A DNA stretch of 64,000 nucleotides from an uncultured Candidatus Saccharibacteria bacterium (GTDB lineage Bacteria > Patescibacteriota > Minisyncoccia > UBA6257 > 2-01-FULL-56-20), in contig OZ246418.1 in the NCBI GenBank assembly GCA_965231155.1, positions 368,751 to 432,750 on the forward strand. Reading direction: 5' to 3'. A program made the position numbers and the translations under genes. The notes under the pieces are model-generated. The model made no database searches and was not told where the DNA came from. It saw only the letters and a list, made by a program, of their open reading frames with translations. Position 1 is the first letter of the stretch, and each line of letters starts with the position of its first letter. This document shows positions 10,123 to 53,711 of the stretch, one piece after another.

Positions 10123-10174
10123 GACCGCTTAGTAGTGATATCGTGTGACAGATGTGATTGCTGTCACAACCCCA

Positions 10175-10205
10175 AACCCCCTCTTTTCAAGAGGGGGTTT
10201 GCATT
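10175..10205 (+). terminator. Rho-independent terminator after the giant surface protein gene
   Basis: Perfect 11-bp stem aaccccctctt / aagagggggtt with a 3-nt loop, followed by a T-rich tract. A second hairpin (gtgtgacag...ctgtcacaa) lies at 10143-10168. Confidence 0.7.
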
Positions 10206-10230
10206 TGGGGGTGGGTTTCTTACAATTCAT

Positions 10231-12471
10231 ATGGTTATGCAACCGACAAAAGTTATAAAAATATTGCAGTGGTTGATTTTCGGCATTGTTTTTTTAGTGC
10301 CGCTTTTCTATGTGCGTCAGAGTGTCTATCCATACACTTTCGCGAAAACTCTTTTTTTCCAAGCCTTAGTAGAGATTGCTTTCTTTCTTTGGCTAGCTCT
10401 TGCGGTTAAAGATCAACGATTGAGACCTCGTTTTACCCCGATTACCCTTGCGGTGGGGGGTTTTCTATTGGTGGCTGCCACGACCGCCTTCTTTGGAGTT
10501 GATTTTTGGAGAAGTCTTTGGTCAACCCAGGAGAGAATGGTAGGAATTATTACTTTTCTCCACTTGGCGGTGTTTATGCTGGTAGTCAGTTCTCTTCGAG
10601 AGCACATTTCTCGACAGTGGCTCCTTTTTACTTCAGTTCTCACAGCCGACATAGTTAGTTTTTTGGCCTTCCTCCAACTCAACGTGCCAAATCTGCTTCT
10701 TACTGAGTCGGTGGGAAGTCGTCCCGGGGCGACCTTTGGAAACCCGACGTTTTTCGCTGGGTATCTTCTTTTTCATATCTTTATTGCGCTCTATTATTTT
10801 CTTTTCGAGAAAAATGCTCCGTCTTCAGCAAGTTGGTATAAATGGTTCTTTGGAGGGTCGTTTGTGTGTTTATCTATTGCACTTTTCATTACTCAAACAA
10901 GAGGAGATATTTTAGGGTTTGGGTTGGGAATCCTTACTCTTTTCTTTTTGTTCGCTTTGCAGCCACCGCTCTCTTCGGGGATCGGTGCTCGGCGATCTTT
11001 TTATTTTGGCTGTCTAGGTATTTTTGTTTTAATAGTTTCGGGATTTTGGCTTACTCGTTCGGCATCAGTATGGAAGGGAGTTCCTGGTCTTGAAAGATTT
11101 CAGAACCTGACTTTTTCGAGCAGTGAAATTGAACCGCGCCTCTTTGCCTATCGGGCTGCCTGGCAGGGTTTTTTAGAACGGCCTACTGGCTGGGGTTGGG
11201 AAAACTTTAATGTGGTTTCTAATAAGTATTATCAGCCAAGCTTATTGCAGTATAACTATGTGGAAACAAGATTTGATAAGCCACACAATGTCTTTCTTGA
11301 GTACTTAGTGACCGGCGGCGCCTTATTGCTATTGGCTTATTGCGCCATGTTAATCGTTCTCATCAAGCAGGCTTGGCGGAAAGACGATCTATTATTTGGA
11401 CAGATCGTTGTCGCTATCGTTGTGAGCTACTCTGTAAGGAATCTGTTCGTATTTGAAACGCTTGGACCATTGCTTATACTTTTTCTCCTTCTCGGCCTGG
11501 TTGATGGTGCATACCGAAGAGGTTCTGAAAATACAACAGCAAGACCTAAGGGAAACTCACGAGGAGCACATTCTTTTAGTAGTCCATGGCCAGGCTTAGT
11601 AGTTGGCTTGATGGTGGCGTATGGTATGTTCGTCATTCCACTACAAGCAACATATCACCAGTTTTGGGGGTTCCATCTTTTCATTCGTAATCAATCTCAG
11701 AAAGCAGTCGAGAGCTTTGAGAAGGCGATAGCACTTCCTACGCCATATCGTTGGAATATACAGAGAGATTATGCTGCAGCTATTACCCAGGCCTACTTTT
11801 ATAATCCAACTTCGGTGTCTGTAGAGGCGGTTCGAAGAGCTATCAAGGGAATGGAAGAGGTGGCCGAGAAACATCCATTAGATGCGTATAATCATTATGC
11901 ATTAGTTGATATGTACAACGAGGCCTCTGATGCAGATCCTCAGTATCTTAGTAAGGCTGAGAAGCAAGCAGAGATTGCTTTGAGTCTCAGTCCAAATCGG
12001 CAACAGGTGCTTTTCTCATTAGCTAAAACAAAAACTCTCAAGAAGGAGAATCTGGTTGCTCTAGATATTTTGAAGAAAGCTCTTGATCTTGAGCCCAAAG
12101 TCCCAGATGCGCATTTCTATTATGGTCTTTTGGCTCACGTGGTTGGTCAGAAAGATCTTGCATACAAAGAGCTGAAGGAGGCCATTGCTATGGGTCGACA
12201 GTGGAAGAATGTGAATGAACCGATACTAGTAGGGAATTTCTTTGCTGATCAGGGACACTTGAGTGATGCGATTATGGCTTACAAACAGGCAGGATTAATG
12301 GATCCAGAGAATCTTGAGGTGATGGCAAAGTTGGGTGTCGCTTACTACTTCGCTGGAGATCGAGATCTTGCTCGCATCGAGCTTCAGAAGCTCAAGAATA
12401 AAACTGATCTCCGTTCTTCTCCTGGATATGCAGATATGGCTCCGATTCTTCGGGCTCTTGGACTAGAGTAG
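10231..12471 (+). CDS. Wzy_C (O-antigen ligase / O-oligosaccharyltransferase-like) polytopic membrane protein with C-terminal TPR repeats
   Basis: About 10-12 TM helices followed by a large periplasmic-type loop (Wzy_C-like). C-terminal 300 aa has TPR-like helical repeats (AYKELKEAIAMG..., AIMAYKQAGLMDPEN). ATG at 10231 preferred over 10135, which reads CDRCDCC through the terminator hairpins. Confidence 0.7.
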   Translation: MVMQPTKVIKILQWLIFGIVFLVPLFYVRQSVYPYTFAKTLFFQALVEIAFFLWLALAVKDQRLRPRFTPITLAVGGFLLVAATTAFFGVDFWRSLWSTQERMVGIITFLHLAVFMLVVSSLREHISRQWLLFTSVLTADIVSFLAFLQLNVPNLLLTESVGSRPGATFGNPTFFAGYLLFHIFIALYYFLFEKNAPSSASWYKWFFGGSFVCLSIALFITQTRGDILGFGLGILTLFFLFALQPPLSSGIGARRSFYFGCLGIFVLIVSGFWLTRSASVWKGVPGLERFQNLTFSSSEIEPRLFAYRAAWQGFLERPTGWGWENFNVVSNKYYQPSLLQYNYVETRFDKPHNVFLEYLVTGGALLLLAYCAMLIVLIKQAWRKDDLLFGQIVVAIVVSYSVRNLFVFETLGPLLILFLLLGLVDGAYRRGSENTTARPKGNSRGAHSFSSPWPGLVVGLMVAYGMFVIPLQATYHQFWGFHLFIRNQSQKAVESFEKAIALPTPYRWNIQRDYAAAITQAYFYNPTSVSVEAVRRAIKGMEEVAEKHPLDAYNHYALVDMYNEASDADPQYLSKAEKQAEIALSLSPNRQQVLFSLAKTKTLKKENLVALDILKKALDLEPKVPDAHFYYGLLAHVVGQKDLAYKELKEAIAMGRQWKNVNEPILVGNFFADQGHLSDAIMAYKQAGLMDPENLEVMAKLGVAYYFAGDRDLARIELQKLKNKTDLRSSPGYADMAPILRALGLE

Positions 12472-20138: not shown

Positions 20139-21860
20139 ATGGACGCACAACGATTTTTGAAAGAAGTTGAGACTGCTGGCCTCCTTAATCAAGGGGACTT
20201 TGAGTCACTGAAAAAAGAAGTAGAACTTTCCGGACGTCCGGTTGAGGCGGTGGCAGTGGAACGTCGCTTGGTTGATGATGGTAAGTTGGCACAGTTGAAG
20301 GCGAAGGTTTTAGGAGTTCCATATAAGAAAGTAAAAACAACAGATGTTCCTACAGAACTTTTTGAACTTTTTCCAGAAGAGACAGTCAGAACTTATACTG
20401 TTGTGCCGATTGAGAAACAGAATGATTTATTAGTTGTTGGCATGGTTGATCCGGATGATCTGAAGGCTCAGGAGGCGATTAAATTTATTGCGCGACGGGC
20501 TCACCTCAATCTTGGTGTGTATGCTATTTCTTGGAGTGATTGGCAGTCGGTGTTACAGCGCTACTCTCCATATAAGAGTGAGATTGAAGCAGCTATTCGG
20601 TCTTTGAATTTGAAATCATCGGCTGGTCGTGATTTGGTGAGCTTGGAAAAAGGTGCCTCGGCCGCGCAGGATGGACCAGTTATCCGAATCGTGGCGGAAA
20701 CATTCCGCGAAGCGATTACGCGAGGCGCTTCGGATATTCATATTGAACCTCAGCAAAACTATCTTCGTATTCGGTTGCGCGTTGATGGAGAGTTGCGCGA
20801 GGAAGCTTCTTTGCCCGTCGAACTTTCTCAGCCGGTAGTTTCTCGTATTAAAGTCATTTCTGATTTAAAAATCGACGAGACGCGCATTCCTCAGGATGGT
20901 CGTTTTCGAACAACAGTTTTTGGCAGGAATATTGATTTTCGAGTTTCCACATTTCCGACTCCGTTAGGGGAGAAGGTGGCCATTCGTGTCCTTGATCCGA
21001 CCACCGGCCTCAAGAGTTTTGAGCAACTTGGTCTGATGGGCAAAAATTTGGAGTTTGTGAAAGAAGGACTGAATAAGCCCTTTGGTATGGTTTTGGTGAC
21101 TGGTCCAACTGGCTCTGGTAAAAGTACGACGCTCTATGCCTTGCTTCAGGCCTTGAATCGCGAGGGAGTGAATATTGTCAGTCTTGAAGATCCTGTTGAG
21201 TACTTTGTGTCGGGGGTGAATCAGTCCCAGGTACATCCCGAGATTGGCTATGACTTTGCTTCTGGTTTGCGTCAGATTCTTCGTCAGGATCCAGACGTGA
21301 TTATGGTTGGTGAGATTCGAGATACCGAGACAGCCAGTCTTGGAGTGCACGCGGCGCTCACTGGTCATGTGGTTCTTTCAACACTCCATACCAACAATGC
21401 GATTGGTGTGATTCCTCGATTGATCGATATGAAGGTTGATTCATTCCTCATTCCGGCGGCTTTGAATCTGATGCTCGGACAGAGACTCGTTCTTCGTCTC
21501 TGTGAGAAGTGTAAAGAACCCCAGCAAGCTTCTCCGGAACTTCAGACAGCTATTAAAAAGGCGTTAGCCGGCATGCCCGCAGAACTGACCGCTGAATTCA
21601 AAGATCCCTATACTATATATAAGGCGCCAGGGTGTAATGCCTGTCGAGGTAAGGGGACTGTTGGTCGGATGGCAGTTTTTGAAGTGTTTCGAATGACTCC
21701 AGAACTGGAAAGTCTTTTAAATAGCGGTTTCAGTATGCAACAGATTATGGCTGAGACGAAGCGACAGGGGATGATCACGATGCGTCAGGATGGAGTTCTG
21801 AAGGCCTTAGCGGGAATTGTTTCTTTGGAGGATGTCTTACGTGAGACTACTGAGGATTAA
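20139..21860 (+). CDS. pilB: Type IV pilus assembly ATPase PilB (GspE family)
   Basis: Walker A GPTGSGKSTT, Asp box, His box. N-terminal GspII_E N domain. C-terminal tetracysteine (CEKCKEP...CNACRGKG). Confidence 0.95.
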   Translation: MDAQRFLKEVETAGLLNQGDFESLKKEVELSGRPVEAVAVERRLVDDGKLAQLKAKVLGVPYKKVKTTDVPTELFELFPEETVRTYTVVPIEKQNDLLVVGMVDPDDLKAQEAIKFIARRAHLNLGVYAISWSDWQSVLQRYSPYKSEIEAAIRSLNLKSSAGRDLVSLEKGASAAQDGPVIRIVAETFREAITRGASDIHIEPQQNYLRIRLRVDGELREEASLPVELSQPVVSRIKVISDLKIDETRIPQDGRFRTTVFGRNIDFRVSTFPTPLGEKVAIRVLDPTTGLKSFEQLGLMGKNLEFVKEGLNKPFGMVLVTGPTGSGKSTTLYALLQALNREGVNIVSLEDPVEYFVSGVNQSQVHPEIGYDFASGLRQILRQDPDVIMVGEIRDTETASLGVHAALTGHVVLSTLHTNNAIGVIPRLIDMKVDSFLIPAALNLMLGQRLVLRLCEKCKEPQQASPELQTAIKKALAGMPAELTAEFKDPYTIYKAPGCNACRGKGTVGRMAVFEVFRMTPELESLLNSGFSMQQIMAETKRQGMITMRQDGVLKALAGIVSLEDVLRETTED

Positions 21861-21977
21861 TCGCTTTCATTTTCAGAACACGTATAAATTCTGCTGAATT
21901 TATACTATACTGCGCACCGACGTGCTCCATAATGTTCTCAAAATGAAAGCTCATGAGGAGTGTGAGGAGGTATATGG

Positions 21978-21983
21978 TATAAT
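21978..21983 (+). promoter_or_regulatory. Extended -10 (TGgTATAAT) positioned 6 nt before the pilT ATG, which suggests a leaderless transcript
   Basis: tggtataat at 21975-21983; ATG at 21990. No Shine-Dalgarno sequence at suitable spacing. Confidence 0.35.
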
Positions 21984-21989
21984 TTTTTT

Positions 21990-23066
21990 ATGGCTGAAGA
22001 TTATAAACAGAAACTTGATGAGTTGTTATTAACGACTGCGAAACAGAATGCTTCTGACCTTCATTTAAGTGTGGGTCGTCGTCCGACGTTGCGTCTGGAC
22101 GGTGTGCTGGTGGCATTACAGAAAGAAGAAATTATGACTCCAGAGATTGCCGAGGGTTTGATTTCTGCCCTCCTTACTCCTGAGCAGAAAAAAAGATTTC
22201 TTGATGAACGCCAGCTCGACTTTGCCTATAGCTATGAAGACAAGGCGCGTTTTCGTGTGAATGTGTATTTTCAGCGTGGGTATATGTCGGCGGCACTTCG
22301 TTTAATTCCACCTCATGTAAAAACACTCGAAGAGTTATCTTTACCGCCAATTCTTCATGATTTTGGAAAGCTCACCCAGGGATTTATTTTGGTGGTGGGT
22401 CCGGCTGGTCATGGGAAGTCGACAACATTGGCCGCTATTCTTGATGAGATCAATCACACGCGCACTGATCACATCATTACTATTGAGGATCCAATTGAGT
22501 ATGTCTTCGCTCAGGATCGAGCCATTATTTCTCAGAAAGAAGTAGAGAGTGATATTCCCAGTTTTAGCGCTGGTCTTCGCACGATTCTTCGTCAGGATCC
22601 AGACGTGGTGATGATTGGTGAAATGCGAGATGCTACTTCTATCGCCACCGCCATGACTGCTTCGGAAACTGGTCACTTGGTTTTTTCCACACTACACACC
22701 AACTCAGCGGCGCAAACTATTGATCGTATTATTGATTCTTTCCCTCCCGAGCAGCAGTCACAGGCGATGTCACAGCTGGCTGCGACATTAGTAGCAATTG
22801 TATCTCAGCGTTTAGTTCCGAGATTGTCTGGTGGGCGTGTTCCGACAAATGAAATCATGATTGTGAATCCTGCAATTCGCAATCTTATTCGTGAGCGAAA
22901 GATTTACCAAATTGATTTGGTTATTGAAACAAGCGTCCAGGAGGGGATGATGACCCTCAATCGCTCCTTGGCTACTTTGGTGAAGAATAAAGAGATTTCT
23001 TTGGAAAATGCTGAGTTGTATTCACTGAATCCTGCCGAGCTTAGAATCTTATTGGAGAGGATGTAG
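21990..23066 (+). CDS. pilT: Twitching-motility / pilus retraction ATPase PilT
   Basis: Walker A GPAGHGKSTT. 358 aa. PilT-type Asp/His boxes (TIEDPIEY, HLVFSTLHTNSAAQTIDRIID). Confidence 0.95.
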   Translation: MAEDYKQKLDELLLTTAKQNASDLHLSVGRRPTLRLDGVLVALQKEEIMTPEIAEGLISALLTPEQKKRFLDERQLDFAYSYEDKARFRVNVYFQRGYMSAALRLIPPHVKTLEELSLPPILHDFGKLTQGFILVVGPAGHGKSTTLAAILDEINHTRTDHIITIEDPIEYVFAQDRAIISQKEVESDIPSFSAGLRTILRQDPDVVMIGEMRDATSIATAMTASETGHLVFSTLHTNSAAQTIDRIIDSFPPEQQSQAMSQLAATLVAIVSQRLVPRLSGGRVPTNEIMIVNPAIRNLIRERKIYQIDLVIETSVQEGMMTLNRSLATLVKNKEISLENAELYSLNPAELRILLERM

Positions 23067-23089
23067 GAGTTGTTCATTCGTATTCTTAT

Positions 23090-24301
23090 ATGAAATTTAA
23101 GTACCAAGCAAAAACGCGAGAAGGAGAGCTCCAGGTGGGCTATGTTGAAGCGGGTACTAAAGATAGTGCGGCCAGTATTCTTTCTAGTCATGAACTTTTC
23201 CTTCTGACGCTCGAAGAAGCTGAACACGTTCGTTGGTATGATCGATTATCAAGCTACTTCAGTTCTGTTCGCAAAAAAGACTTTGTTATCTTTAGCCGAC
23301 AGCTGGCTCTTCTTTTGAATGCGCGATTACCGTTGGGTGATGCGTTGAGAAATCTGGCAGAGCAGACACAGAACCCAACGCTTAAGGAGTCGGTGATCTT
23401 AGTCTCAGAAGATATCAATTCCGGTCTATCTTTTTCGCAGGCCTTGGAACGACAGGGTGGGGTGTTCTCTGAGTTTTTTGTAAGCTTGGTACGTGCTTCT
23501 GAAGTGACGGGAAACTTGGCTGAGGCCGCTTCGTTTTTGGCTGATTACTACGAAAAAGAATCGATTATTAGTAGCAAGGTAAAAGCTGCCTTGATGTATC
23601 CGATAATCGTCATTCTTCTATTTGTTGGCGTATCGGTTCTTTTGATCACTGTTGTCTTCCCACAGATCGGTCCAATCTTTGCGCAAGCGAAAGTGGAACT
23701 CCCTCTCTTCACGAAAATTCTTTTGAACAGTGGTGATTTCTTGAGTCGGTGGTGGTTGGTCCTGGTTATCTGTCTCACGGTGATCGTTGCCACGATTCTT
23801 GACTATGCACGAACGACCGAGGGGAGGGGAGTATTTGATGAGCTGAAGATTCGATTACCAATTGTCGGAAAGGTGTATATGCCCCTAATGATTACTCGTA
23901 TTTCCAATAATGCAGCCATTCTTTTGCATGGTGGTGTGCCGATGGCGCAAACGTTAGAAATTGTCAGTCAGACAGTTGATAACGCGGTCTACGAAGAACT
24001 TCTTCGTGACATTAGTAATGGTGTTCGTCAGGGGGAACCACTTTCGAAGGCGATTAGTCAGCATCCTGATTATTTCCCGACACTTATTTCCCAAATGTTA
24101 GCGGTTGGTGAAGTGACTGGACAGGTTGATGAGATATTCACACGTGTAGCTACCTTGTACGGTCGAGAGCTGGATGATACAATCAACAACATGACCGAGC
24201 TAATTCAGCCGGTCCTGATGGTGGGCTTGGGACTTCTGACTGGATTATTATTCGGTTCGATTCTCATCCCGCTCTATAAGTTAGTTTCTACATTCCAGTA
24301 G
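23090..24301 (+). CDS. pilC: Type IV pilus inner-membrane platform protein PilC (GspF family)
   Basis: Two T2SSF repeats, three TM helices. 403 aa. Confidence 0.9.
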   Translation: MKFKYQAKTREGELQVGYVEAGTKDSAASILSSHELFLLTLEEAEHVRWYDRLSSYFSSVRKKDFVIFSRQLALLLNARLPLGDALRNLAEQTQNPTLKESVILVSEDINSGLSFSQALERQGGVFSEFFVSLVRASEVTGNLAEAASFLADYYEKESIISSKVKAALMYPIIVILLFVGVSVLLITVVFPQIGPIFAQAKVELPLFTKILLNSGDFLSRWWLVLVICLTVIVATILDYARTTEGRGVFDELKIRLPIVGKVYMPLMITRISNNAAILLHGGVPMAQTLEIVSQTVDNAVYEELLRDISNGVRQGEPLSKAISQHPDYFPTLISQMLAVGEVTGQVDEIFTRVATLYGRELDDTINNMTELIQPVLMVGLGLLTGLLFGSILIPLYKLVSTFQ

Positions 24302-36032: not shown

Positions 36033-36839
36033 CTATTCTCCCTGATTGGTGAATCGAGCGTCAGCGTACTCCCAGAATTTATTTGAACCACCAATTGAGC
36101 TGGCACACTCGCTTTCCTCAGCATAACTCATGGCAAAACGATGAATACTGGTGAGTGGAAGATGGCGATAGATCCAGGCGACTTGTCCTTTTTCTCCGTA
36201 CTCGGCCATGACTTGCTTCATGGTTTCGTGGAAAGCCTGGCAGTAAGGACACTCAAAGTCAGAGAATTCAACAATTTTCACTGGAGCATTTTGGTTTCCA
36301 CGAATGTGGTCAGTACTGCTCACTGGAAGCATGTTGTAGATAGGATCATTTTTCTCTTTGGCGGTTGGTGGCGTGCTGGTACTGGCTAAAGCTTCTTCTA
36401 TAATCTTCTTCACCTCCTCATATGGATAAGCGCCGGCGATGAGGAACCTCTTTCCACTAGGGGCGATTACAATATTGTATGGCGTGCCTTGTCCACCGGC
36501 TTTTTCTGCATCAGCCATATGGCCTTGGATTTTTTCCGCGAATGATTTTTTTGCTAAGCAGGCTTCAACGGCGTCTTTTTTGAGTCCGATGCTCGCCATG
36601 ACATCAACTGGCTTGGCGGAGCCATTTTTCCCGGTGAATGAAGTAGGATCTCTATAGAGAATAGCAATGGCGACAAGGAGTCCAGCGCCAATGATAGAAA
36701 TAGGGATGAGGTAGGGGTTTTCTTTTTTATTTTCGAACTCGATATCTATCTTTTCGGGGATTGTGGTAATCGGATCCATTTCTTTCTTCATAGCTTTTAC
36801 CGCAACCGTTTTCTCTTTCGTGATTTTTTTTGTGGGCAT
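36033..36839 (-). CDS. DsbA-like thiol:disulfide oxidoreductase (thioredoxin fold) with N-terminal membrane anchor
   Basis: CPYC active site (FECPYCQAF). N-terminal TM IPISIIGAGLLVAIAIL. Confidence 0.75.
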   Translation of the reverse strand: MPTKKITKEKTVAVKAMKKEMDPITTIPEKIDIEFENKKENPYLIPISIIGAGLLVAIAILYRDPTSFTGKNGSAKPVDVMASIGLKKDAVEACLAKKSFAEKIQGHMADAEKAGGQGTPYNIVIAPSGKRFLIAGAYPYEEVKKIIEEALASTSTPPTAKEKNDPIYNMLPVSSTDHIRGNQNAPVKIVEFSDFECPYCQAFHETMKQVMAEYGEKGQVAWIYRHLPLTSIHRFAMSYAEESECASSIGGSNKFWEYADARFTNQGE

Positions 36840-37019
36840 AAAAATAGTATAGCATAACTTATTTTATTTTTTTATGAATATTTTTGAACACTAAGAACAA
36901 ACTTCTCCTTGAAGTGTATGATTTTTGAGAAGCTATCGGAGAAACTAAGGTTTTGAGATCCAGGGAAACTTTCAGTAGGAAGTTATCCCGGTTCACAAAA
37001 ATTGCATACTGAAGATTGT

Positions 37020-37089
37020 TGCGGGGGCCGGACTCGAACCGGCTCCACGAGCTTATGGGGCTCGCATGGTAACCCTTCCACCACCCCGC
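37020..37089 (-). tRNA. tRNA with anticodon CAT (Met, or Ile2-lysidine type), compact (about 70 nt), no encoded CCA
   Basis: Minus strand GCGGGG(T)...CCCCGC acceptor. Anticodon stem CGAGC/GCTCG with loop CCCATAA (C at position 33 is unusual). T-arm GCCGG-TTCGAGT-CCGGC. Confidence 0.75.
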
Positions 37090-37220
37090 GATATGACGGC
37101 TTATTATAGAAGGGAATGAGAGCAATTGTCAAAACATCAAATAGATGATACAAATTTCTAGTATTCGTAGCCCCGACGTTGCAGTCGGGATGGTGGAGCG
37201 AGTTTGTTTGTCTTATGAAT

Positions 37221-37292
37221 GCTGGCGTAGCTCAGTGGTAGAGCGAGGGACTCATAAACCCTAGGTCGGAAGTTCGATCCTTCCCGCCAGCA
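37221..37292 (+). tRNA. tRNA-Met (anticodon CAT; elongator vs initiator not resolved), no encoded CCA
   Basis: Acceptor GCTGGCG/CGCCAGC (G1-C72 paired). D-arm TAGCTCAGTGGTAGAGC. Anticodon loop CTCATAA. T-arm GGAAG-TTCGATC-CTTCC. Discriminator A. Confidence 0.85.
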
Positions 37293-37298
37293 CATCTT

Positions 37299-38024
37299 TC
37301 ATTTCTTGGTCTGCGTCGCAAACCTCATTTTTAGTACATTCACGAGGCCTTCTTTGATGATGGAGGACTTAAATTTTGAAGCACCGATTATTCTGTCTCG
37401 AAAGGTGATGGGGACTTCGATCATCGAATAGTTATTTTTTAGTGCTTGCCATTTGAGCCAGATCTGAAAAAAGTAACCGTCGAAAGTAATTTCTTCTTGG
37501 AGAATTTTTTGTAGAGTCTCTTTGCGCCACCCATTGAATCCACCAGTCAAATCTCGAATGGATATCTGAAGGATGCTTCGCGCATAAAGGTTGCCCAGTC
37601 GACTAATCATTTTTCTTTGGAAGTTCCAGCCTTCAATTTCCCCTTTTTTTGTGTAGCGAGAACCAACAACTACGTCGTACTCTCTGAGGGCGTTATAGAT
37701 CTTTGCAATATCTCGATAGTCGTGGCTCCCATCGGCATCCATCTGAACAATAGCCTCGGCCCCAAGATTGAGAGCGTAGTCGAATCCTTCTTTATATGAT
37801 TGTGCAAAACTCTTGGTTTGCTTTCGTTCTATAAGGTGGAGACGGGGTGTTTGTTTTTGGATTTCTCTTACCTCTCGTACTGTACTATCAGTTGAGTGAT
37901 CGTCGACAACAATAACTGAAGTAATATGTGGATCTTCAAGGAGGTGGGGGATGATCTTACTCACATTACCCGCTTCGTTCAGCGTGGGAATAACTATGAC
38001 CAGTTTTTTTATTGAATGGGGCAT
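37299..38024 (-). CDS. Family 2 glycosyltransferase, polyprenyl-phosphate sugar synthase type (DPM1 / GtrB-like)
   Basis: VIPTLNEAGNV, VVDDHSTDST, DADGSH (DxD-containing GT-A fold). 241 aa. Confidence 0.85.
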   Translation of the reverse strand: MPHSIKKLVIVIPTLNEAGNVSKIIPHLLEDPHITSVIVVDDHSTDSTVREVREIQKQTPRLHLIERKQTKSFAQSYKEGFDYALNLGAEAIVQMDADGSHDYRDIAKIYNALREYDVVVGSRYTKKGEIEGWNFQRKMISRLGNLYARSILQISIRDLTGGFNGWRKETLQKILQEEITFDGYFFQIWLKWQALKNNYSMIEVPITFRDRIIGASKFKSSIIKEGLVNVLKMRFATQTKK

Positions 38025-38473
38025 TATTCTCTGAAAACGACATACTTATATTGAAGGAAGTTTGAAAGGGAGCCACAGGCGATACCAAGTAAGGAAGCAA
38101 TGTTGGCCCATAGTTGGGGAGAAAGTTCTGCGGGGTGAATAGTGTGTACCAATAACGCAGCGATGCCGATGTTGATGATGCCACTGAGAAGGCTGGCGAG
38201 ATAAAATTTTTCAAATCGTTTTTCGTTCTGAGAGGAAAATACCCAGTGTCTATTCCAGAAAAAGTTGTGATAGACAGCTACAGAGAAGGAGAGGGTTTTA
38301 AAAACAAGGAAGGATGCTCCGGCGGAGAGGCCGGTAAGGAACATGGCCGTATTGAGGACGGTGAGGTCAATAATCACGCCAACGATACCAACGAGGGAAA
38401 AGGCAGCGATCTGATACCAACTCTTTGTGGCGTTGCGATGCCACCAGAAGGCCACTTCTTTTTTCTTAAGCAT
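38024..38473 (-). CDS. GtrA-family membrane protein (flippase-like partner of the GT2)
   Basis: Four TM helices. Motif FFWNRHWVFSSQ typical of GtrA. Start taken at MLKKKEVAFWW; the longer ORF to 38659 would run into the divergent promoter region. Confidence 0.7.
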   Translation of the reverse strand: MLKKKEVAFWWHRNATKSWYQIAAFSLVGIVGVIIDLTVLNTAMFLTGLSAGASFLVFKTLSFSVAVYHNFFWNRHWVFSSQNEKRFEKFYLASLLSGIINIGIAALLVHTIHPAELSPQLWANIASLLGIACGSLSNFLQYKYVVFRE

Positions 38474-38539
38474 TGTAGTGAGTGTTGTTTTAATAAAAAA
38501 CTGACGAGTGTCTATGGGATAGTATATAATTGATACATT

Positions 38540-41500
38540 GTGAAGAAAATAACGTCGCTTTTTATACTTGCTGGAGGAGTTTTTTTGTTTTCCGTTTATG
38601 TTCTCTTCGGCGCTCCTGGCTTGCTGACGAGAGTTCTGGTTCAGGCCCAAGTGGCACATACCGATATCATTACAAGTATCGTTGGCGGAGGCAATGGTGA
38701 CGGTTGTCCAGTGAAAAGTGCTGCAGAGATTATGGCTCAGGGCATGACAATCGATCGCAGTGGGAATCTTATGATAAGAGAGGGCTCTCTAAACCCCCGC
38801 TTACGAATTGTCTCTCCGATTGTTGGCAATGCCTTGAGTCCTGAGTCTATAATTTCGACTCCCTCTGGTCAGGAAGAGATTTTCAGGAATCCTTTCTATA
38901 TAAGTAATGCAGGAGGTGTTGCTTTTGATGCTGAGGGGAGGTGGTATGTCAGTGATGGTTACGCCAGGATCTGGAGGAGGTCTCCTGCTGGTCAGTGGGA
39001 AGTTTTTGCTGGAATGACCAGTCCTGGATACAGCGGTGATGGAGGGATACCGACAAATGCCGAGCTTTCTTCTCCTGCCAGTCTTACTTTTGATACTTCG
39101 GGTACTTTGTATATTGTGGAGGTAGGAAGTAATCGAATTCGAAGGATAAAGAATGGGATTATTGATACACTTCTCCAGTTCGATGTTGCCGATGCACGTC
39201 GTTTGGCGATGGACTCGGATGGTAATTTATTGGTAGTCAATCAGATTGCTCATGCTATCAGAAAGATTGATGTGCAAACTGGAGAAGTAACTCTCGTTGC
39301 AGGTACTGGTGTACAGGGATTTTCTGGTGATGGTGGTCCAGCAACAGCGGCACAGCTTTATTTGCCATCTGATTTAGCAGTTTCTTCGAATGGTGATATC
39401 TATATTGCTGATGCCGTGAATCATCGCGTGAGAAAGATTGCAAAGACTACCGGAATTATTACCACGGTAGTTGGCACAGGAGATTCTCGTGGAGCAGTGC
39501 GTGAAAACATTCCTGCCACCACTGCCTCTCTCGATAGTCCAATTTCTCTAGCAATCGATTCTCGTGACAGACTTTATATTGGTGAGGGTGGGGGAACTCA
39601 TAAGGGGATTAGAGTTGTGGAGAATGGGATTATTTCTTCTTTTTCTGGTTTGACGAATGGAGAAGGGTGTTTCGCTCAGAACGCTTTTCTTCGACCCTAC
39701 TCGATGCTTGTGGATGAGAGCAATAATTTAACCTTCATCGATTTTGATACTGCGAAAGTAATGAGGGTTCCTGCTCGTAATGGCGTGCAAGACGGGACTG
39801 GTGTGATGACGAGAATTACCGATTTTGATAGCTTGCAGGGCTCGACGACTTTTGCTTTAGCCAAAGATTCTGCGGGTATTCTATATGCTATTAATGGAAA
39901 TAGGATTTTGAAATTGCTCAGTCCTAATAATTGGGTTGTAGTTGCTGGAACAGGGGTGGCTGGATTTTCTGGTGATGGTGGTCCGGCAACAGCGGCAACG
40001 CTGAGAGATCCATATGACCTTCTGGTGGCTTCTGATGGTACAATTTTTTTCTCTGATCAAAATAATAATCGAATCAGAACAGTCTCTCCCACTGGGACGA
40101 TTGACACATACGTAAGTTTTCCGGTGCAACCTCGCGGAATCGATCAGGATCGGTTTGGTAATCTTTTCGTAGCAATCAGATACGGAAGTGTTTATAAAAT
40201 AGCCGCGGGAACCAGGGAAATTTCTGTTGTGGCAGGTGGCGGTTTGTCGAGAGGCTATCCAGATAGCGGAGAGGTTTCTGCGACCAGCACCTTTATTAAT
40301 TCAAATGACGTGGTCGTTGCTTCTGACGGAACTCTTTATATATCATCAGATCCTCAAACCCATCGAGTATTTCGCGTAACGCCTCAGGGCATGATGAGAA
40401 CTTTAGTCGGCTCTAATCTCTTTTATTCCACGCCGACAGGTGACGGTGGGCCGGCTGTCGGAGCATCACTTTCTGAACCACATCGTTTAGCTCTCGATCG
40501 ACAGGGAAATCTTTTTATTGCTGATTACGCCCATCGTCGGATCCGTAAGATTACGATGAGCGCAACTACCCCTCAGCCGAATCCTGTGCCAGTTCTCTCC
40601 GGACTCAGTCATTCTCAGTTCAATGTTGGTCAGTCAAGTTACTACTTTTATGCTAATGGGAGTGGTTTTGTACCGGATTCTGTCATTCGTTGGAATGGTC
40701 AGGATAGGCCTACGGTATACGTTTCTTCTCAGCAGATACGTATCGTGACTCAGGCTTCTGATATGGCGAATCCTGGAACGGTGGCGATTACGGTGTATAC
40801 GCCACCACCTGGAGGAGGGGTGTCTGGTAGTCAGACGCTTACAATTATAGATCCCAATGCTCCAAGCTCTAGTCAGCCGAGTATTACTAGCATTTCGCCA
40901 AACACAAAGGTAGCAGGTGGCGCTGGTTTTAATATGATTCTTACTGGTTCAAACTTTTCGAATAATTCTGTGGTGAAATGGAACAATCAAGTTCGGGTTA
41001 CTATCTTTGATTCGATCGCTCGTCAACTGACTGCCCAGATTCTTGACGGTGATATACGAGCCACGGGAACTTTCCCAGTAACCGTCGAGAACCCATCGCC
41101 TAGTGGAGGAGTGTCGGCTCCACTTATGTTTACAGTAACTGATCCTGCCTCACCACCTAACGAGACAACCTCTTGGCTTTCGAGTGGCGACCAACTTTAC
41201 ACAGCTTCTCAAGTGAGAAAGGTGGGCATTGGAACTACTGCTCCAGATTTTCCATTAACACTGCAGGCATTCGTAGGCGCCGACCCATTATTTTCTCGGG
41301 TGTTTTCTTTCCAGGATCAAAACGGTGTACGCAAGTGGCATCTTAATTTTCTGAATGGGGGATTGAACTTTGTGCAGTCTGGAGTGGCTGACTACAGACT
41401 GTTCTTAGCACAAAATGGAAATGTGGGAGTTGGTCTTGCAACTCCACAAGCAAAGCTGGATGTAAATGGCACAGTTAAGGTTGGTTCTCTTACTGCTGAT

Positions 41501-41605
41501 CCAACTGGAGAGAATGGAATGATTTATTACAATACCACTATGAACAAGTTCCGTTGTTACAAATCTAGTCAGTGGAGAAATTGTATTGCCGTGGTCATGC
41601 CTTAA
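38540..41605 (+). CDS. Large secreted NHL-repeat beta-propeller protein with IPT/TIG-like domains and a C-terminal about 125-aa Cys-containing module shared with the next two genes
   Basis: 1021 aa. Signal peptide. Repeated NHL motifs (YIADAVNHRVRKI, FIADYAHRRIRKI, FSDQNNNRIRTV, LYIVEVGSNRIRRI). Two Ig-like segments. C-terminal module TTSWLSS...GENGMIYYN...FRCY...W..C. Confidence 0.8.
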   Translation: MKKITSLFILAGGVFLFSVYVLFGAPGLLTRVLVQAQVAHTDIITSIVGGGNGDGCPVKSAAEIMAQGMTIDRSGNLMIREGSLNPRLRIVSPIVGNALSPESIISTPSGQEEIFRNPFYISNAGGVAFDAEGRWYVSDGYARIWRRSPAGQWEVFAGMTSPGYSGDGGIPTNAELSSPASLTFDTSGTLYIVEVGSNRIRRIKNGIIDTLLQFDVADARRLAMDSDGNLLVVNQIAHAIRKIDVQTGEVTLVAGTGVQGFSGDGGPATAAQLYLPSDLAVSSNGDIYIADAVNHRVRKIAKTTGIITTVVGTGDSRGAVRENIPATTASLDSPISLAIDSRDRLYIGEGGGTHKGIRVVENGIISSFSGLTNGEGCFAQNAFLRPYSMLVDESNNLTFIDFDTAKVMRVPARNGVQDGTGVMTRITDFDSLQGSTTFALAKDSAGILYAINGNRILKLLSPNNWVVVAGTGVAGFSGDGGPATAATLRDPYDLLVASDGTIFFSDQNNNRIRTVSPTGTIDTYVSFPVQPRGIDQDRFGNLFVAIRYGSVYKIAAGTREISVVAGGGLSRGYPDSGEVSATSTFINSNDVVVASDGTLYISSDPQTHRVFRVTPQGMMRTLVGSNLFYSTPTGDGGPAVGASLSEPHRLALDRQGNLFIADYAHRRIRKITMSATTPQPNPVPVLSGLSHSQFNVGQSSYYFYANGSGFVPDSVIRWNGQDRPTVYVSSQQIRIVTQASDMANPGTVAITVYTPPPGGGVSGSQTLTIIDPNAPSSSQPSITSISPNTKVAGGAGFNMILTGSNFSNNSVVKWNNQVRVTIFDSIARQLTAQILDGDIRATGTFPVTVENPSPSGGVSAPLMFTVTDPASPPNETTSWLSSGDQLYTASQVRKVGIGTTAPDFPLTLQAFVGADPLFSRVFSFQDQNGVRKWHLNFLNGGLNFVQSGVADYRLFLAQNGNVGVGLATPQAKLDVNGTVKVGSLTADPTGENGMIYYNTTMNKFRCYKSSQWRNCIAVVMP
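41163..41534 (+). repeat. 372-bp direct repeat, copy 1 (100% identical to 41730..42101)
   Basis: Base-for-base identity with copy 2 on manual comparison of all six 60-nt lines. Confidence 0.9.
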
Positions 41606-41641
41606 TTTGTGTATATGATAGAATACAGATAACTACGTTCC

Positions 41642-42157
41642 ATGGATATCCATAAAAAAATAGTACATTCATCGTTTCTGATTAGTGCTGTTATTCTAAG
41701 CCTCTTTTCTTTTACGATGGTTTTGGCTCAGACAACCTCTTGGCTTTCGAGTGGCGACCAACTTTACACAGCTTCTCAAGTGAGAAAGGTGGGCATTGGA
41801 ACTACTGCTCCAGATTTTCCATTAACACTGCAGGCATTCGTAGGCGCCGACCCATTATTTTCTCGGGTGTTTTCTTTCCAGGATCAAAACGGTGTACGCA
41901 AGTGGCATCTTAATTTTCTGAATGGGGGATTGAACTTTGTGCAGTCTGGAGTGGCTGACTACAGACTGTTCTTAGCACAAAATGGAAATGTGGGAGTTGG
42001 TCTTGCAACTCCACAAGCAAAGCTGGATGTAAATGGCACAGTTAAGGTTGGTTCTCTTACTGCTGATCCAACTGGAGAGAATGGAATGATTTATTACAAT
42101 AATTCCTTGCAAACTTTTCGTTGTTATGAGGCTGGAATGTGGAAGGATTGTTTTTAA
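41642..42157 (+). CDS. Small secreted protein consisting of signal peptide plus the shared C-terminal module (paralog of the NHL protein C-terminus)
   Basis: 171 aa. Signal peptide ends ...MVLAQ. The mature protein is identical over 124 aa to the NHL protein C-terminal module, then diverges in the last about 18 aa (NNSLQTFRCYEAGMWKDCF vs TTMNKFRCYKSSQWRNC). Confidence 0.6.
   Translation: MDIHKKIVHSSFLISAVILSLFSFTMVLAQTTSWLSSGDQLYTASQVRKVGIGTTAPDFPLTLQAFVGADPLFSRVFSFQDQNGVRKWHLNFLNGGLNFVQSGVADYRLFLAQNGNVGVGLATPQAKLDVNGTVKVGSLTADPTGENGMIYYNNSLQTFRCYEAGMWKDCF
41730..42101 (+). repeat. 372-bp direct repeat, copy 2
   Basis: Identical to 41163..41534. Confidence 0.9.
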
Positions 42158-42248
42158 TATTATTGCTAGGTGTGGATATCTAGACATATTATATTAAAAA
42201 AGGTGTTATAATTTTATCAATAAGTCGGGTGTGAAAATTTAAATAATA

Positions 42249-43583
42249 ATGAAAAAGACATCGTCGATTATTTGGTTCGCTGCGTTTTCTGTAGTGACCA
42301 TTCTCCTATCTCAACTTCCTGCAGTTGATGCTCAAACAGGAGACACATGGGCAGTTGATGCTAATAACAATGTTGTTACCGCGGTTGGTACTGAAAATGT
42401 TGGTATTCGAACAACTAATCCCGACCTTCCCCTAACAGTTCAGGCTAAGGCTGGAAGCACGGCCTGGCTTCGTTTTCGTGATAGCAGTGCAATTAACAAG
42501 TTTCATATCAGTGGTCTAAATGGTGGATTTAATATTGCAGAGTCTGGTGTGATAGATGGTCGTTTGTATCTTAAGCCTGGAGGAGCGGCTGGTATCAATA
42601 CAACCAGTCCGTTCGGTGGAACATTTTCTGGAAACGGCTTAGATATTAATGGCATCTTGAAAGTAGGGGGTCAGGGATTCAACGAGGCTACGACAGGCGC
42701 TGGTGGTATGATGTACTACAATGGAACAAAGTTTCGTTGTAACGAAGGAGGAAGTTGGAAGGACTGTGTGGTAGGTGGGGGTAGTGGAGGAGGTATCGGT
42801 AATGATGCGCCAAGTCCAAATGCGCTGCCAAGGTGGACGAGCACTGGTAATGCTTTTTTGACCAATAGTAATATTTCCGATAATGGCACTCAGGTCACTA
42901 TTAGCAAGCCCACTTCTATTACTGGTAGCCTTTCCGCGAGCTCTATCACGGTGACTGGTGGATCTCCAACAGTTTGTCAGGCTGGCCAAGTTCTGGCTGG
43001 AGCGACTGTTCGAGGAGGATTAGTGACGGGTGGTACTTGTTCCTCGTTCATTTCGAGCACTCCTGGATTTTCTTTGTGGGAGCAGATTCCTGGTACGGCA
43101 AAACTGAAGACTTCAGCAACGATTGATGCTATTGGTGTGGGAACAAGTGACGTCGATCTTCCTCTTACTATTAAAGGCGGTGGTCAGTCTGGATCAGCCT
43201 GGATTCGTTTGAAGGATAGTACTGGAGCTAACAAATGGCATTTCACTGGTTTTGGTGGTGGATTTAGTTTCGTGGAGACCGGTGTTGCTGGTGGTGATGG
43301 GAGGTTCTTCATTAAAGCGGGTAGTGGCAATGTCGGTATGGGAACAATTACTCCAGGGGCAAAATTAGAAATTTCAACTCCAACAAGCAATGCGCTACGT
43401 TTGCGTCGTGGAACTCCGGGTAGTGTTGATGTATTTTCTGCAGTAGGCAGTGGAACTGGAAATTCTTTGTGTGGTGTTCCAACGGCAGGTGCATGTCTTG
43501 CTGCTTTTGATAGTAGCCGTTCTTCCATTAGTTGTTCTGAGGGAGGAGCGATCCGTGCTCTTTGTGCCGCGGTAGGGGATTAA
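42249..43583 (+). CDS. Secreted protein with two divergent tandem copies of the same module followed by a Cys-rich tail
   Basis: 444 aa. Signal peptide. Copy A VGIRTTNPDLPLTVQ...GGFNIAESGVIDGRLYL...MMYYNGTKFRCNEGGSWKDC. Copy B IGVGTSDVDLPLTIK...GGFSFVETGVAGGDGRFFI...GNVGMGTITPGAKLEI. Confidence 0.6.
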   Translation: MKKTSSIIWFAAFSVVTILLSQLPAVDAQTGDTWAVDANNNVVTAVGTENVGIRTTNPDLPLTVQAKAGSTAWLRFRDSSAINKFHISGLNGGFNIAESGVIDGRLYLKPGGAAGINTTSPFGGTFSGNGLDINGILKVGGQGFNEATTGAGGMMYYNGTKFRCNEGGSWKDCVVGGGSGGGIGNDAPSPNALPRWTSTGNAFLTNSNISDNGTQVTISKPTSITGSLSASSITVTGGSPTVCQAGQVLAGATVRGGLVTGGTCSSFISSTPGFSLWEQIPGTAKLKTSATIDAIGVGTSDVDLPLTIKGGGQSGSAWIRLKDSTGANKWHFTGFGGGFSFVETGVAGGDGRFFIKAGSGNVGMGTITPGAKLEISTPTSNALRLRRGTPGSVDVFSAVGSGTGNSLCGVPTAGACLAAFDSSRSSISCSEGGAIRALCAAVGD

Positions 43584-43607
43584 AGGTTTTTTCAGCTTTC
43601 AACTCAT

Positions 43608-43640
43608 AAAACCCGTCCAAGAATTCTGACGGGTTTTATG
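43608..43640 (+). terminator. Rho-independent terminator
   Basis: aaaacccgtc-caagaattct-gacgggtttt followed by at. Confidence 0.7.
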
Positions 43641-43653
43641 ATAGTCTAGTACT

Positions 43654-51680: not shown

Positions 51681-53711
51681 ATGCAGACTTACAATTCTTC
51701 TCTCTCGTGGTCGCGTGTTCGTCTGGCCTTTTTTGCATTGGTGATGGTAGTACTTCTCCCAGCAGTTTTTAGTGGCGGTCTTGATGATTTTGGTCGAGGG
51801 CTCTTTTTTGTACTTGCGGCGCTTTTTATTGTGCTCCAGCACTCATATTGTCCGAGAGACAAACAGATTCGTATCTTTTCCTACTTATCTATACTTTTTC
51901 TAGGATTAATTTTTTGCTCAGCATTTGTTTCCTTCGACTATCACAAAACGGTCAACGATTTTTTTGTGCTTATGGCGGCAGTGCTTGTCGGCTTCAAGAG
52001 CTTCTTTCTTTTCAAGGATGTCGGATTAGAAGATAAATTTTTCAGATGGCTTCTCGGGGGAACCGTTCTCTTCTCTCTCTATGGACTCTATATTTTTATA
52101 GGTGCCGATCCCTTATTTCGTCTTGGTTCAGTTTTCTACCAGCAAAATGCTTTTGCGGGGTTTATGTTGCCTTCTCTATTCTTCGTTTTCGGATCCCTTT
52201 TTATCACTCGGTCGAAATGGAGGTTTATTTTGTTTGGATCGATTGGTGTTTTATTAATCACAGTTTTCATCCTGACTTTTGCCCGAGGGGCTGCACTGGC
52301 GTTTTTGGGAAGTTTTGTGGTGACGGCGATGCTCTTACGGTGGTCTTTGCGTGAGTGGGTAAAAAATATTGGAATTACATCTCTCATACTTTTTCTCGGT
52401 GGCATCTTGGCGTTTACTGTTTTTAGCGCAAAGAATCAGAGGTTCGCTCAGACAGTTCACATTGCACCAAATTCTCCGGTCCAGTTCTTTGAGTACGAAA
52501 CGCCTCAGGAGAATGGCTTGATGGCTCGTTTTGCATTCCTGAAGGAAACTCAAAGAATCTTTTTCTTATATCCTTTGACTGGTGTCGGGTGGGGTGCTTT
52601 TGGAGATGCGTTTTTTATGCACCGAGAAGGACTTCGCAACTATACTGCCGATCCGCATAATCTCATTGCTCGAAGTTTTGTTGAGCTTGGTGTGATTGGT
52701 GGACTGATATTTCTTGTTCTTGTTGGCAATCTTTTCTACTTCGTGTGGCTGGTGGCGAGAAGGGATTATAAGGATAGGACGGAAAGGACTTTTTCGTTTG
52801 TTGTTATCGGAAGCTTTCTGGCTTTTTTCTTTCAGAATATGGTAAACGCCGACTGGCTTTTTCCGTCCGATGTTGTTCTTTTTTGGGTGATTGTGGCCCT
52901 ACTTGTAAGACGAGTTTACGAGAGAGAGACATCGGTTATTCACTCAGTTCGTTGGTTGAATAATTTGATTATTCTATTTGGTATTGGTTTGGCAGTAGTT
53001 GGTGGTACGCAAGTTCTTGCCAGAAGTTATTTCAATCAAGCTCACGAGCTCGTGTCTTTAGGGCGAAGCAGTGAGGCTTTTGACAGTTATCGATGGGCCG
53101 TGCGTCTTGATCCATGGGAACCTCTTTATAAACGCGACCTTGCGATGGTGCATATTGAGTCAATGAAGCGAACAAGAGATAAGAGCTTGGCGATCTTTCA
53201 TCAAGAACAGGCATTAGACGAGATCAATCAAGGATTAGCTATTCGTCCTTTTGATCCATATTTCTTCTTCCTGCGTGGGCAAGTGTATTTTTATCAAGGC
53301 GATACAGAGAGAGCGAAGACTGCCTTCCAAACAGCTCTACGATATGATCGTTTTACTTTGTTTGGTGCGTATCGCGAACTGGTTAATCTTTATTTTCAGC
53401 AAGAAGATTATCAGGCAGTTGTCGAACTTCTTCAGCCTATTGTGCGAGTGTATTCCGAAGAGGTTTTTGCTTCGGTCGCCTGGATCAATCCCCACAAAGA
53501 TCAATCAAGGAAAGAGGTCGCAGATCTGTGGTTGCGTCTAGGTTTGGCTCACCTCGGTCTTCGAGACTCTACCGCTGCCAGAACAGCTTTTGAGACGGCT
53601 CAACGGTTCGACCCAGAGAATGCGCAGGTGAAGAGGGCGGGGGATTGTTTTCAGCTCCAGCCTCGTTCCTTGGATGCTTTTAGGAGTTGTTTCTATTCTT
53701 CAGCTTACTAG
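51681..53711 (+). CDS. Second Wzy_C (O-antigen ligase-like) membrane protein with C-terminal TPR repeats
   Basis: About 11 TM helices with a Wzy_C-type loop (FILTFARGAALAFLG...). C-terminal TPR-like repeats (AFDSYRWAVRLDPWEP..., AKTAFQTALRYD...). Same architecture as 10231..12471. Confidence 0.7.
   Translation: MQTYNSSLSWSRVRLAFFALVMVVLLPAVFSGGLDDFGRGLFFVLAALFIVLQHSYCPRDKQIRIFSYLSILFLGLIFCSAFVSFDYHKTVNDFFVLMAAVLVGFKSFFLFKDVGLEDKFFRWLLGGTVLFSLYGLYIFIGADPLFRLGSVFYQQNAFAGFMLPSLFFVFGSLFITRSKWRFILFGSIGVLLITVFILTFARGAALAFLGSFVVTAMLLRWSLREWVKNIGITSLILFLGGILAFTVFSAKNQRFAQTVHIAPNSPVQFFEYETPQENGLMARFAFLKETQRIFFLYPLTGVGWGAFGDAFFMHREGLRNYTADPHNLIARSFVELGVIGGLIFLVLVGNLFYFVWLVARRDYKDRTERTFSFVVIGSFLAFFFQNMVNADWLFPSDVVLFWVIVALLVRRVYERETSVIHSVRWLNNLIILFGIGLAVVGGTQVLARSYFNQAHELVSLGRSSEAFDSYRWAVRLDPWEPLYKRDLAMVHIESMKRTRDKSLAIFHQEQALDEINQGLAIRPFDPYFFFLRGQVYFYQGDTERAKTAFQTALRYDRFTLFGAYRELVNLYFQQEDYQAVVELLQPIVRVYSEEVFASVAWINPHKDQSRKEVADLWLRLGLAHLGLRDSTAARTAFETAQRFDPENAQVKRAGDCFQLQPRSLDAFRSCFYSSAY

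Follow-up and report, generated by a model that had tools for sequence, protein, structure and literature searches.

An exact 372-bp repeat shared by two adjacent surface-protein genes of a Candidatus Saccharibacteria genome, and its probable upkeep by gene conversion

RecA-dependent gene conversion keeps duplicated bacterial genes identical, the tufA/tufB pair of Salmonella being an example, and in silent-cassette antigenic variation, as at Neisseria pilE/pilS, Borrelia vlsE and Mycoplasma genitalium MgPa, many variant unexpressed donors stand behind a surface gene. We analysed a 64,000-nucleotide stretch from an uncultured Candidatus Saccharibacteria bacterium (GenBank assembly GCA_965231155.1, contig OZ246418.1, positions 368,751 to 432,750 of the forward strand), referred to here as the window, in which a 372-nt segment occurs twice without a single difference: once in the 3' part of a gene for a secreted 1021-aa NHL beta-propeller protein and once in the adjacent gene for a secreted 171-aa protein. 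The segment encodes the body of a module that most likely belongs with the mosaic adhesive trimer (MAT) fibres of Bdellovibrio bacteriovorus, which are intertwined trimeric beta-helices with recurrent capping loops (PMC10769870). These fibres end in S74 chaperone domains or other independently folding tips, and they display 'tip swapping', Bd1334 and Bd2133 being 75% identical along the fibre and divergent at the tip (PMC10769870). If their module is MAT-like, the NHL and 171-aa proteins would likewise share a stalk and differ in their tips, and we consider recurrent gene conversion between the two copies the probable cause of their identity.

The repeat and its two copies

Direct comparison of positions 41163-41534 with 41730-42101 gave 372 matches in 372 nt and no mismatch, and identity could not be extended by a single base at either side; the perfect 372-bp repeat, with copies 195 bp apart, that a first-pass annotation of the sequence had reported was thereby borne out. 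Copy 1 (41163..41534, + strand) forms the module body at residues ~876-998 of the NHL protein, and copy 2 (41730..42101, + strand) the module body at residues 30-154 of the 171-aa protein. The copies are offset by 567 nt from start to start, that is 189 codons, with 195 nt between them, and both sit in codon phase 1 of their own open reading frame (ORF), so that recombination between them would stay in frame. As a matter of geometry, crossing-over would remove 567 bp and yield an NHL protein with the tip of the small protein, the small gene being lost, which agrees with the deletion product predicted in the annotation; the reciprocal product would be an extra small gene carrying the tip of the NHL protein. 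Self-BLAST of the window found no other repeat longer than 63 nt, the 372-nt pair being the only long repeat, and the lack of anything comparable together with the 372/372 match excludes chance. A simple tandem duplication was considered and rejected: of the 567-bp unit, no more than the first 372 nt come a second time, and what precedes copy 1 bears no relation to the spacer.

Identity sets in at the middle base of a codon, which specifies the initial mature residue, Gln, in the 171-aa protein and a Glu in the NHL protein. The annotation had set the onset at an AQ/T signal-peptidase site; the repeat does begin near the cleavage site, but the -3/-1 rule favours cleavage at VLA/Q, one residue earlier. 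At the other end, the reading frames run on for 23 codons (NHL gene) and 18 codons (171-aa gene) to their stop codons, not for the 10 codons each that had been given. These terminal parts are referred to as tip A (41535..41605, + strand; TTMNKFRCYKSSQWRNCIAVVMP, then the stop) and tip B (42102..42157, + strand; NSLQTFRCYEAGMWKDCF, then the stop). Tip A is a diverged homologue of tip B, and both carry a C-x8-C pair, in keeping with the two cysteines per tip seen at first reading.

Full-length matching proteins were found encoded on one NCBI contig of 808,089 bp. Separate evidence came from Logan short-read contigs of three runs (SRR14271366, SRR14271372 and SRR14271373), built on a k=31 graph. 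Contigs L004 (SRR14271372) and L006 (SRR14271366) are 100% identical to the window and stop at 41192, 30 nt inside copy 1, and contigs L001 and L002 (SRR14271372/3), also 100% identical, begin at 42072, 30 nt before the end of copy 2. Because these breaks lie k-1 = 30 nt inside the borders, they mark true branch points at which two left flanks enter and two right flanks leave the repeat; both junction pairs of the repeat exist in the reads. Since the 195-nt piece after copy 1 re-enters the repeat, tandem order is the sole linear solution. This independent confirmation covers the outer 30 nt at each border, and assembler bubble-popping could merge single-base differences inside. Neither the 171-aa nor the 1021-aa protein had an exact match in the assembly index, because short-read contigs break in the repeat.

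The borders of the tract bear on its origin. Directly 3' of the identity, tips A and B align in register with 31 of 53 nt identical (58%); the differences include synonymous ones (TTC/TTT and TAC/TAT), and F-R-C-Y....W...C is kept. On the 5' side, the border of identity is also the border of homology, the linker PASPPNE of the NHL protein lying opposite the signal peptide of the 171-aa protein. Had the whole module been duplicated recently, the tips too would be identical; the jump from 100% to 58% points instead to a conversion tract superimposed on older paralogues.

A relative represented by contig L003 (SRR31540316) adds depth in time. Its orthologue of the next gene downstream, which encodes a 444-aa protein, is 87.6% identical to that of the window in nucleotides and 96% in amino acids, and 143 of the 166 differences fall at third codon positions. 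This 17-kb contig begins at window-equivalent position 42070 with 30 nt that correspond to the repeat end and differ from the window at 3 positions; a tip-B orthologue is also present on it. By the k-1 logic applied above, the contig start would place a repeat border at the same Asn codon as in the window, and we infer that the two-copy state with this right border predates the 12-15% divergence between the strains. Independent evolution of the copies since the L003 split would be expected to have produced ~45 differences, against 0 observed, which would imply that the copies have been repeatedly homogenised, the second copy of L003 being deduced from the contig break. The protein collection held no complete 171-like protein from the L003 strain, as is expected if the repeat cuts the gene in assemblies; a search with the 1021-aa protein for an L003 NHL orthologue returned only generic NHL proteins at no more than 39% identity, and proteins cut by contig ends appear to lie outside that collection. 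Tip B is conserved: the window and L003 differ in it by 6 synonymous and 2 non-synonymous codon changes, and it is under purifying selection between the strains.

Partial homogenisation of this kind is not confined to the window. Among metagenome loci fetched via the module, segments of 100-990 nt with 85-95% identity within one locus were common, several of them between tandem paralogous fibre genes. Four tandem S74-type genes of ~300-360 aa each in L053 (2283-7432) and L055 (JGI Ga0302292 and Ga0302288) share a segment of ~220-320 nt at 85-90% identity in the same relative position, a parallel case of partial homogenisation, and in L054 two adjacent fibre genes have 365 nt in common. Perfect repeats break assemblies, so perfect cases are under-represented among such loci. 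A common stalk with a different end is thus habitual in the family, and the window is its extreme case.

The probable explanation, in our view, is that two adjacent, co-oriented and paralogous MAT-like modules repeatedly undergo gene conversion of the RecA type, within limits set by where usable homology ends. Homologous recombination without exchange would keep both module segments identical, and the tips, as old paralogues too diverged for strand exchange, would make every conversion tract stop at the same two places, the 5' limit being set by the loss of homology and the 3' limit by the abrupt fall to 58%. The distinct cysteine-bearing tips would be retained through conversion, and the process would be recurrent, as the right border and the diverged repeat end of L003 suggest. 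Unequal crossing-over might delete or amplify the 567-bp unit as a by-product, not as a designed switch; nothing suggests regulated crossing-over between the copies. Among the origins that the first-pass annotation had offered, ongoing gene conversion is the one favoured by an identity tract with sharp borders lying within older homology; very recent duplication is disfavoured, the tips beyond the tract being homologous but old and the L003 border apparently falling at the same codon.

The module and the genes that carry it

No Pfam family matched the module. A profile made from the four modules of the window and five database relatives matched solved MAT chains of B. bacteriovorus, with 8ond (Bd2133) at E=2.6e-11 and further matches to 8oml, 8on4, 8ol4 and 8ojn; a single module sequence matched 8ond at E=1.2e-6. 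The solved chains cover the tips only, so that the comparison applies to these and the conserved N-terminal, cell-proximal domain lies outside it. The aligned core of the module reads KWHLN..GGLNF..RLFL..GNVGVG..P.AKLDVNG. Homology extends to the capping loop, of the type h-G-h-G-T-x-x-P-x-x-x-L, where GNVGVGLATPQAKLDVNG aligns with GNVGIGATAPTAKLEVAG, and a second such motif, VGIGTTAPDFPL, opens the module; the published capping-loop consensus is V-G-G/N-pi-x-x-P-x-x-x-L. These similarities indicate that the module is most likely one beta-helix unit of the tail-fibre-like MAT type plus a small C-x8-C tip. A single unit bounded by two motifs is present in the 171-aa protein and at the NHL C-terminus, in place of the long fibre of many units that typifies MAT proteins, and distant relatives hold 13-69 matched stretches.

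The first-pass annotation had proposed a search for the module in other genomes. The profile matched 117,864 cluster representatives at E<=0.001, and giant proteins in which the unit recurs dozens of times were numerous among them; module and tip in complete form were confined to this small lineage. Among five giant relatives scanned, one contained Peptidase_S74 and another gave a sub-threshold match to the Chlorovirus glycoprotein repeat (Chlorovi_GP_rpt), and PHROG tail-fibre families matched the module weakly (E 1e-6 to 1e-4). A viral contig scan found the specific GGLNFVESG subtype absent from IMG/VR, and a Pfam scan detected no Peptidase_S74 in the module proteins of the window. An AlphaFold2 monomer model built on a 9-sequence alignment had a predicted local distance difference test (pLDDT) score of 52 overall, the tip being a three-stranded sheet with pLDDT ~77; a poor monomer model can occur with chains that fold only as intertwined trimers. 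Homology with the MAT fibres makes it probable that the module forms a short trimeric beta-helix with a small, disulfide-stabilised tip exposed on the cell surface.

As a separate observation, many proteins from unrelated metagenomes, although of different make-up elsewhere, end in the C-terminal tip motif G-x-I/M-R/Y-Y-N/E-x(3-5)-F-x-G/C-x-x-G-x-W, mostly without the cysteine pair (for example L013 4-168, ending in GMIYYNTTTNKFRGYENGAWANLI before the stop, as well as L029, L040-L043 and others). This mini-tip is a widespread terminal element in its own right.

The gene for the NHL protein (38540..41605, + strand) matched Pfam TEN_NHL, NHL and TIG and NCBIfam CoaZ_rpt_PGGG (2.3e-49). Its product consists, in order, of a signal peptide (likely cleaved at VQA/Q), an NHL beta-propeller (~residues 50-680), two CoaZ/TIG Ig-like repeats (residues 682-865, nt 40583-41134), the module and tip A, and Pfam and NCBIfam scans gave no anchor domain or motif besides the signal peptide. 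Within the gene, a 62-nt repeat (39296-39357 and 39941-40002; 82% identical, with a 36-nt core at 97%) encodes the blade motif VAGTGV.GFSGDGGPATAA, and Logan contig L005 ends nearby, at 39729. A mechanically called 211-aa ORF (38024-38659, - strand) extends into the start of the NHL gene; on the Logan contigs a 149-aa GtrA-like product (38024-38473) was called instead, with which the overlap disappears.

The spacer from the NHL stop to the start of the 171-aa gene (41606..41641, + strand) measures 36 nt, and a terminator scan found no terminator-like site between the three co-oriented genes, this spacer included; the NHL and 171-aa genes are thus likely to be co-transcribed. The 171-aa gene (41642..42157, + strand) encodes a signal peptide (41642-41728, likely VLA/Q), the module body and tip B. 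The third gene (42249..43583, + strand) specifies a secreted 444-aa protein with two diverged modules and 39% amino acid identity to the 171-aa protein, laid out as signal peptide, N-module with tip, Gly-rich linker, middle part and C-module. The N-module (42324-42803) has a C-x8-C tip, and the C-module (43059-43580) is more diverged and has 4 Cys. The three genes hence hold four modules, one more than the annotation had counted; only one pair is of high identity, the other two modules being ~39% identical. Behind the third gene, a 38-nt near-perfect palindrome followed by TTTTAT (43604..43641, + strand) is the likely intrinsic terminator of the NHL-171-444 unit; this palindrome was missing from the output of a consensus terminator scan.

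Orthologues of the 444-aa protein occur in L003 (96% amino acid identity) and in L007, a distant Candidatus Saccharibacteria metagenome-assembled genome (MAG; 55%), and the two-module gene is the conserved member of the family. The sequence of signal peptide, A/QT..W, module and tip is common to the 171-aa protein, the N-terminus of the 444-aa protein and the L007 orthologue, which argues that the 171-aa gene is a genuine paralogue and not debris.

Weighing the explanations

Several points weigh against recurrent conversion between MAT-like modules. Exact identity in the interior of the window's repeat depends on a single assembly. For L003 the second copy is deduced from a contig break, its left border and repeat interior being unseen, and one recent conversion per lineage would leave a pattern indistinguishable from that of a process still under way. 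Finally, the AlphaFold2 monomer model is poor, and the trimer is a prediction from MAT homology.

Alternatively, there may have been just one event, very recent and without sequel: either a 372-bp patch from one gene took the place of the homologous part of the other, or the NHL gene captured the part of the 171-aa gene that encodes the mature protein. Substitutions would then have had no time to arise, in line with the zero differences between the copies. The 5' border lies exactly at the first mature codon of the small protein, as a fusion junction would, and the NHL and 171-aa genes are absent from L007, which makes the block evolutionarily young. We nevertheless regard this account as unlikely. 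The L003 contig breaks at the same codon and has tip B, so that the two-copy state either is older than 12-15% divergence or had two origins with the same border, and tip A, though homologous to tip B, is old, so that the NHL gene had a module beforehand.

Recurrent conversion could also be combined with selection for identity. The NHL and 171-aa proteins might co-assemble as mixed trimers through the identical module, conversion supplying the identity and selection keeping it. MAT beta-helix units trimerise by intertwining (PMC10769870), the two genes lie 36 nt apart with no terminator between them, both proteins have signal peptides, the NHL protein shows no anchor domain or motif beyond its own, and tip B is under purifying selection between strains. 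Nucleotide identity that includes all synonymous sites nevertheless exceeds any need at the protein level, and conversion would suffice by itself; we hold such co-assembly to be improbable as the cause of the identity. If mixed trimers were nonetheless real (e.g., one propeller chain with two small chains), they would let a genome-reduced episymbiont make surface fibres in which tips are combined in various ways and propeller heads vary in number, all from very little DNA, and gene conversion would be the means of keeping the interface matched.

An assembly artefact, in the form of a collapsed or duplicated repeat or of near-identical copies homogenised by consensus or bubble-popping, is less probable still. 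It is true that the genome is a metagenome-type single 808-kb contig and that independent confirmation covers only the outer 30 nt of the repeat at each border. Against this, separate short-read assemblies of the three runs connect the repeat to its two left and its two right flanks, each time exactly k-1 from the border, the 195-nt link from repeat end to repeat start forces the tandem order, and both ORFs are intact and in frame.

Programmed variation, whether silent-cassette recombination or the template/variable repeat (TR/VR) pair of a diversity-generating retroelement (DGR), is scarcely credible, even though the direct repeat lies at the 3' end of a surface-protein gene and DGRs are common in Patescibacteria: neither the genes annotated at 27-54 kb nor the larger ORFs elsewhere included a reverse transcriptase or recombinase, zero mismatches between the copies means no adenine-specific ones, and the only donor is a complete secreted-protein gene and not a silent one, so that the 'functional cassette arrangement' suggested in the first-pass annotation gained no support.

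Genomic setting and comparison with known systems

Upstream of the three genes lies a gene for a DsbA/thioredoxin-like exported oxidoreductase (36033..36839, - strand; Pfam Thioredoxin_4 and DSBA), which is a conserved neighbour of the 444-type gene also in L007 (8207-9010) and whose product is plausibly the oxidase for the C-x8-C tips. It is followed by two divergent tRNA-Met (CAT) genes, at 37018..37090 (- strand) and 37221..37293 (+ strand), and 76 nt around the first of these are 100% identical to L007. The tRNA pair marks the left edge of a block at 37299-42248, which begins with genes for a family 2 (GT2) glycosyltransferase (37299..38024, - strand) and a GtrA-like protein (38024..38473, - strand), both recognised by Pfam. 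In L007 the order is DsbA, tRNA-Met, tRNA-Met and the 440-aa orthologue (55% identical), and the GT2, GtrA, NHL and 171-aa genes are missing from the locus; 37299-42248 is hence a lineage-specific block and the 444-type gene the conserved member. Judged by this gene order, the block looks like a lineage-specific insertion beside tRNA genes.

Close relatives of the locus were scarce. A cluster look-up of the upstream genes found none at least 90% identical, a scan of genome contigs gave one distant MAG only (L007), and a scan of metagenome contigs gave no close relative. One further contig, L008 (SRR29305604), encodes a DsbA with 89% identity in other surroundings and ends short of the locus: in its positions 1-2100, beside DsbA, a ParB_N protein, a 128-aa ORF and a helix-turn-helix/excisionase-like ORF replace the tRNA genes, an arrangement that suggests a mobile element or rearrangement at this spot.

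Downstream of the three genes follows a cell-envelope glycan cluster with a Wzm/Wzt ABC transporter, a pyruvyl transferase, glycosyltransferases, an initiating transferase and a Wzy_C/TPR protein. Two large Wzy_C (O-antigen-ligase-like) TPR proteins, encoded at 10135-12471 and 51681-53711, flank the surface-protein and glycan cluster. Type IV pilus genes at 20139-24301 encode PilB-like and PilT-like T2SSE ATPases and a PilC-like T2SSF protein; the two T2SSE ATPase genes share 63 nt at 86% identity (21262-21323 and 22570-22631). With genes for a DsbA-like oxidase and type IV pili and a cell-envelope glycan cluster as neighbours of the MAT-type modules, the three genes are reasonable candidates for host or surface recognition; a host cell and the cell's own wall polymer, made by the adjacent glycan cluster, are both compatible as the target of the tips.

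If recurrent conversion is correct, the locus would be a clean natural case of domain-level concerted evolution in a very small genome, with the module identical and the disulfide tips distinct. It would also place MAT modules, structurally characterised so far in the predator Bdellovibrio, in a Patescibacteria lineage. No new class of mechanism is opened.

With the MAT fibres of Bdellovibrio (Bd2133 and Bd1334) the window proteins share the core W-x-h-N..G-L-x-F...R-h-x-h...G-N-V-G-h-G..P.A-K-L-x-V-x-G and secretion, and in both sets paralogues differ at the C-terminal end beyond a common stretch, which in the MAT fibres is a stalk with an independently folding tip, as in Bd1334 and Bd2133 (PMC10769870). 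Bdellovibrio lives on other bacteria, and the Patescibacteria affiliation of this genome suggests the same for its owner. The window differs from the MAT precedent in having a single unit where the fibre measures ~1000 aa, free-standing behind a signal peptide or carried on an NHL propeller with Ig-like repeats; moreover, its tips are ~20 residues long with C-x8-C and no S74 domain was found in them, and its stalk is 100% identical in DNA. Phage tail fibres and tailspikes of the Peptidase_S74 group, together with the Chlorovirus glycoprotein repeat, show the same repeat motif and a mosaicism by modular exchange at domain borders, whereas the setting in the window is chromosomal, with no phage genes nearby and a subtype absent from IMG/VR.

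For the conversion itself, the concerted evolution of tufA/tufB would be alike in that paralogues within a genome are identical, orthologues diverge between lineages and the tract is limited by the extent of homology. It is unlike the window in that the tract here is one domain of two otherwise unrelated proteins, with the copies 195 nt apart and in direct orientation. Silent-cassette systems also convert the 3' or variable part of a surface gene from a nearby partial homologue, but the window has one donor, a complete gene identical to the recipient, so that no diversity arises in the converted part. Thus, the locus combines known phenomena, mosaic tail-fibre-like adhesin paralogues and concerted evolution, in an unusual minimal form in a Patescibacteria genome of ~0.8 Mb.

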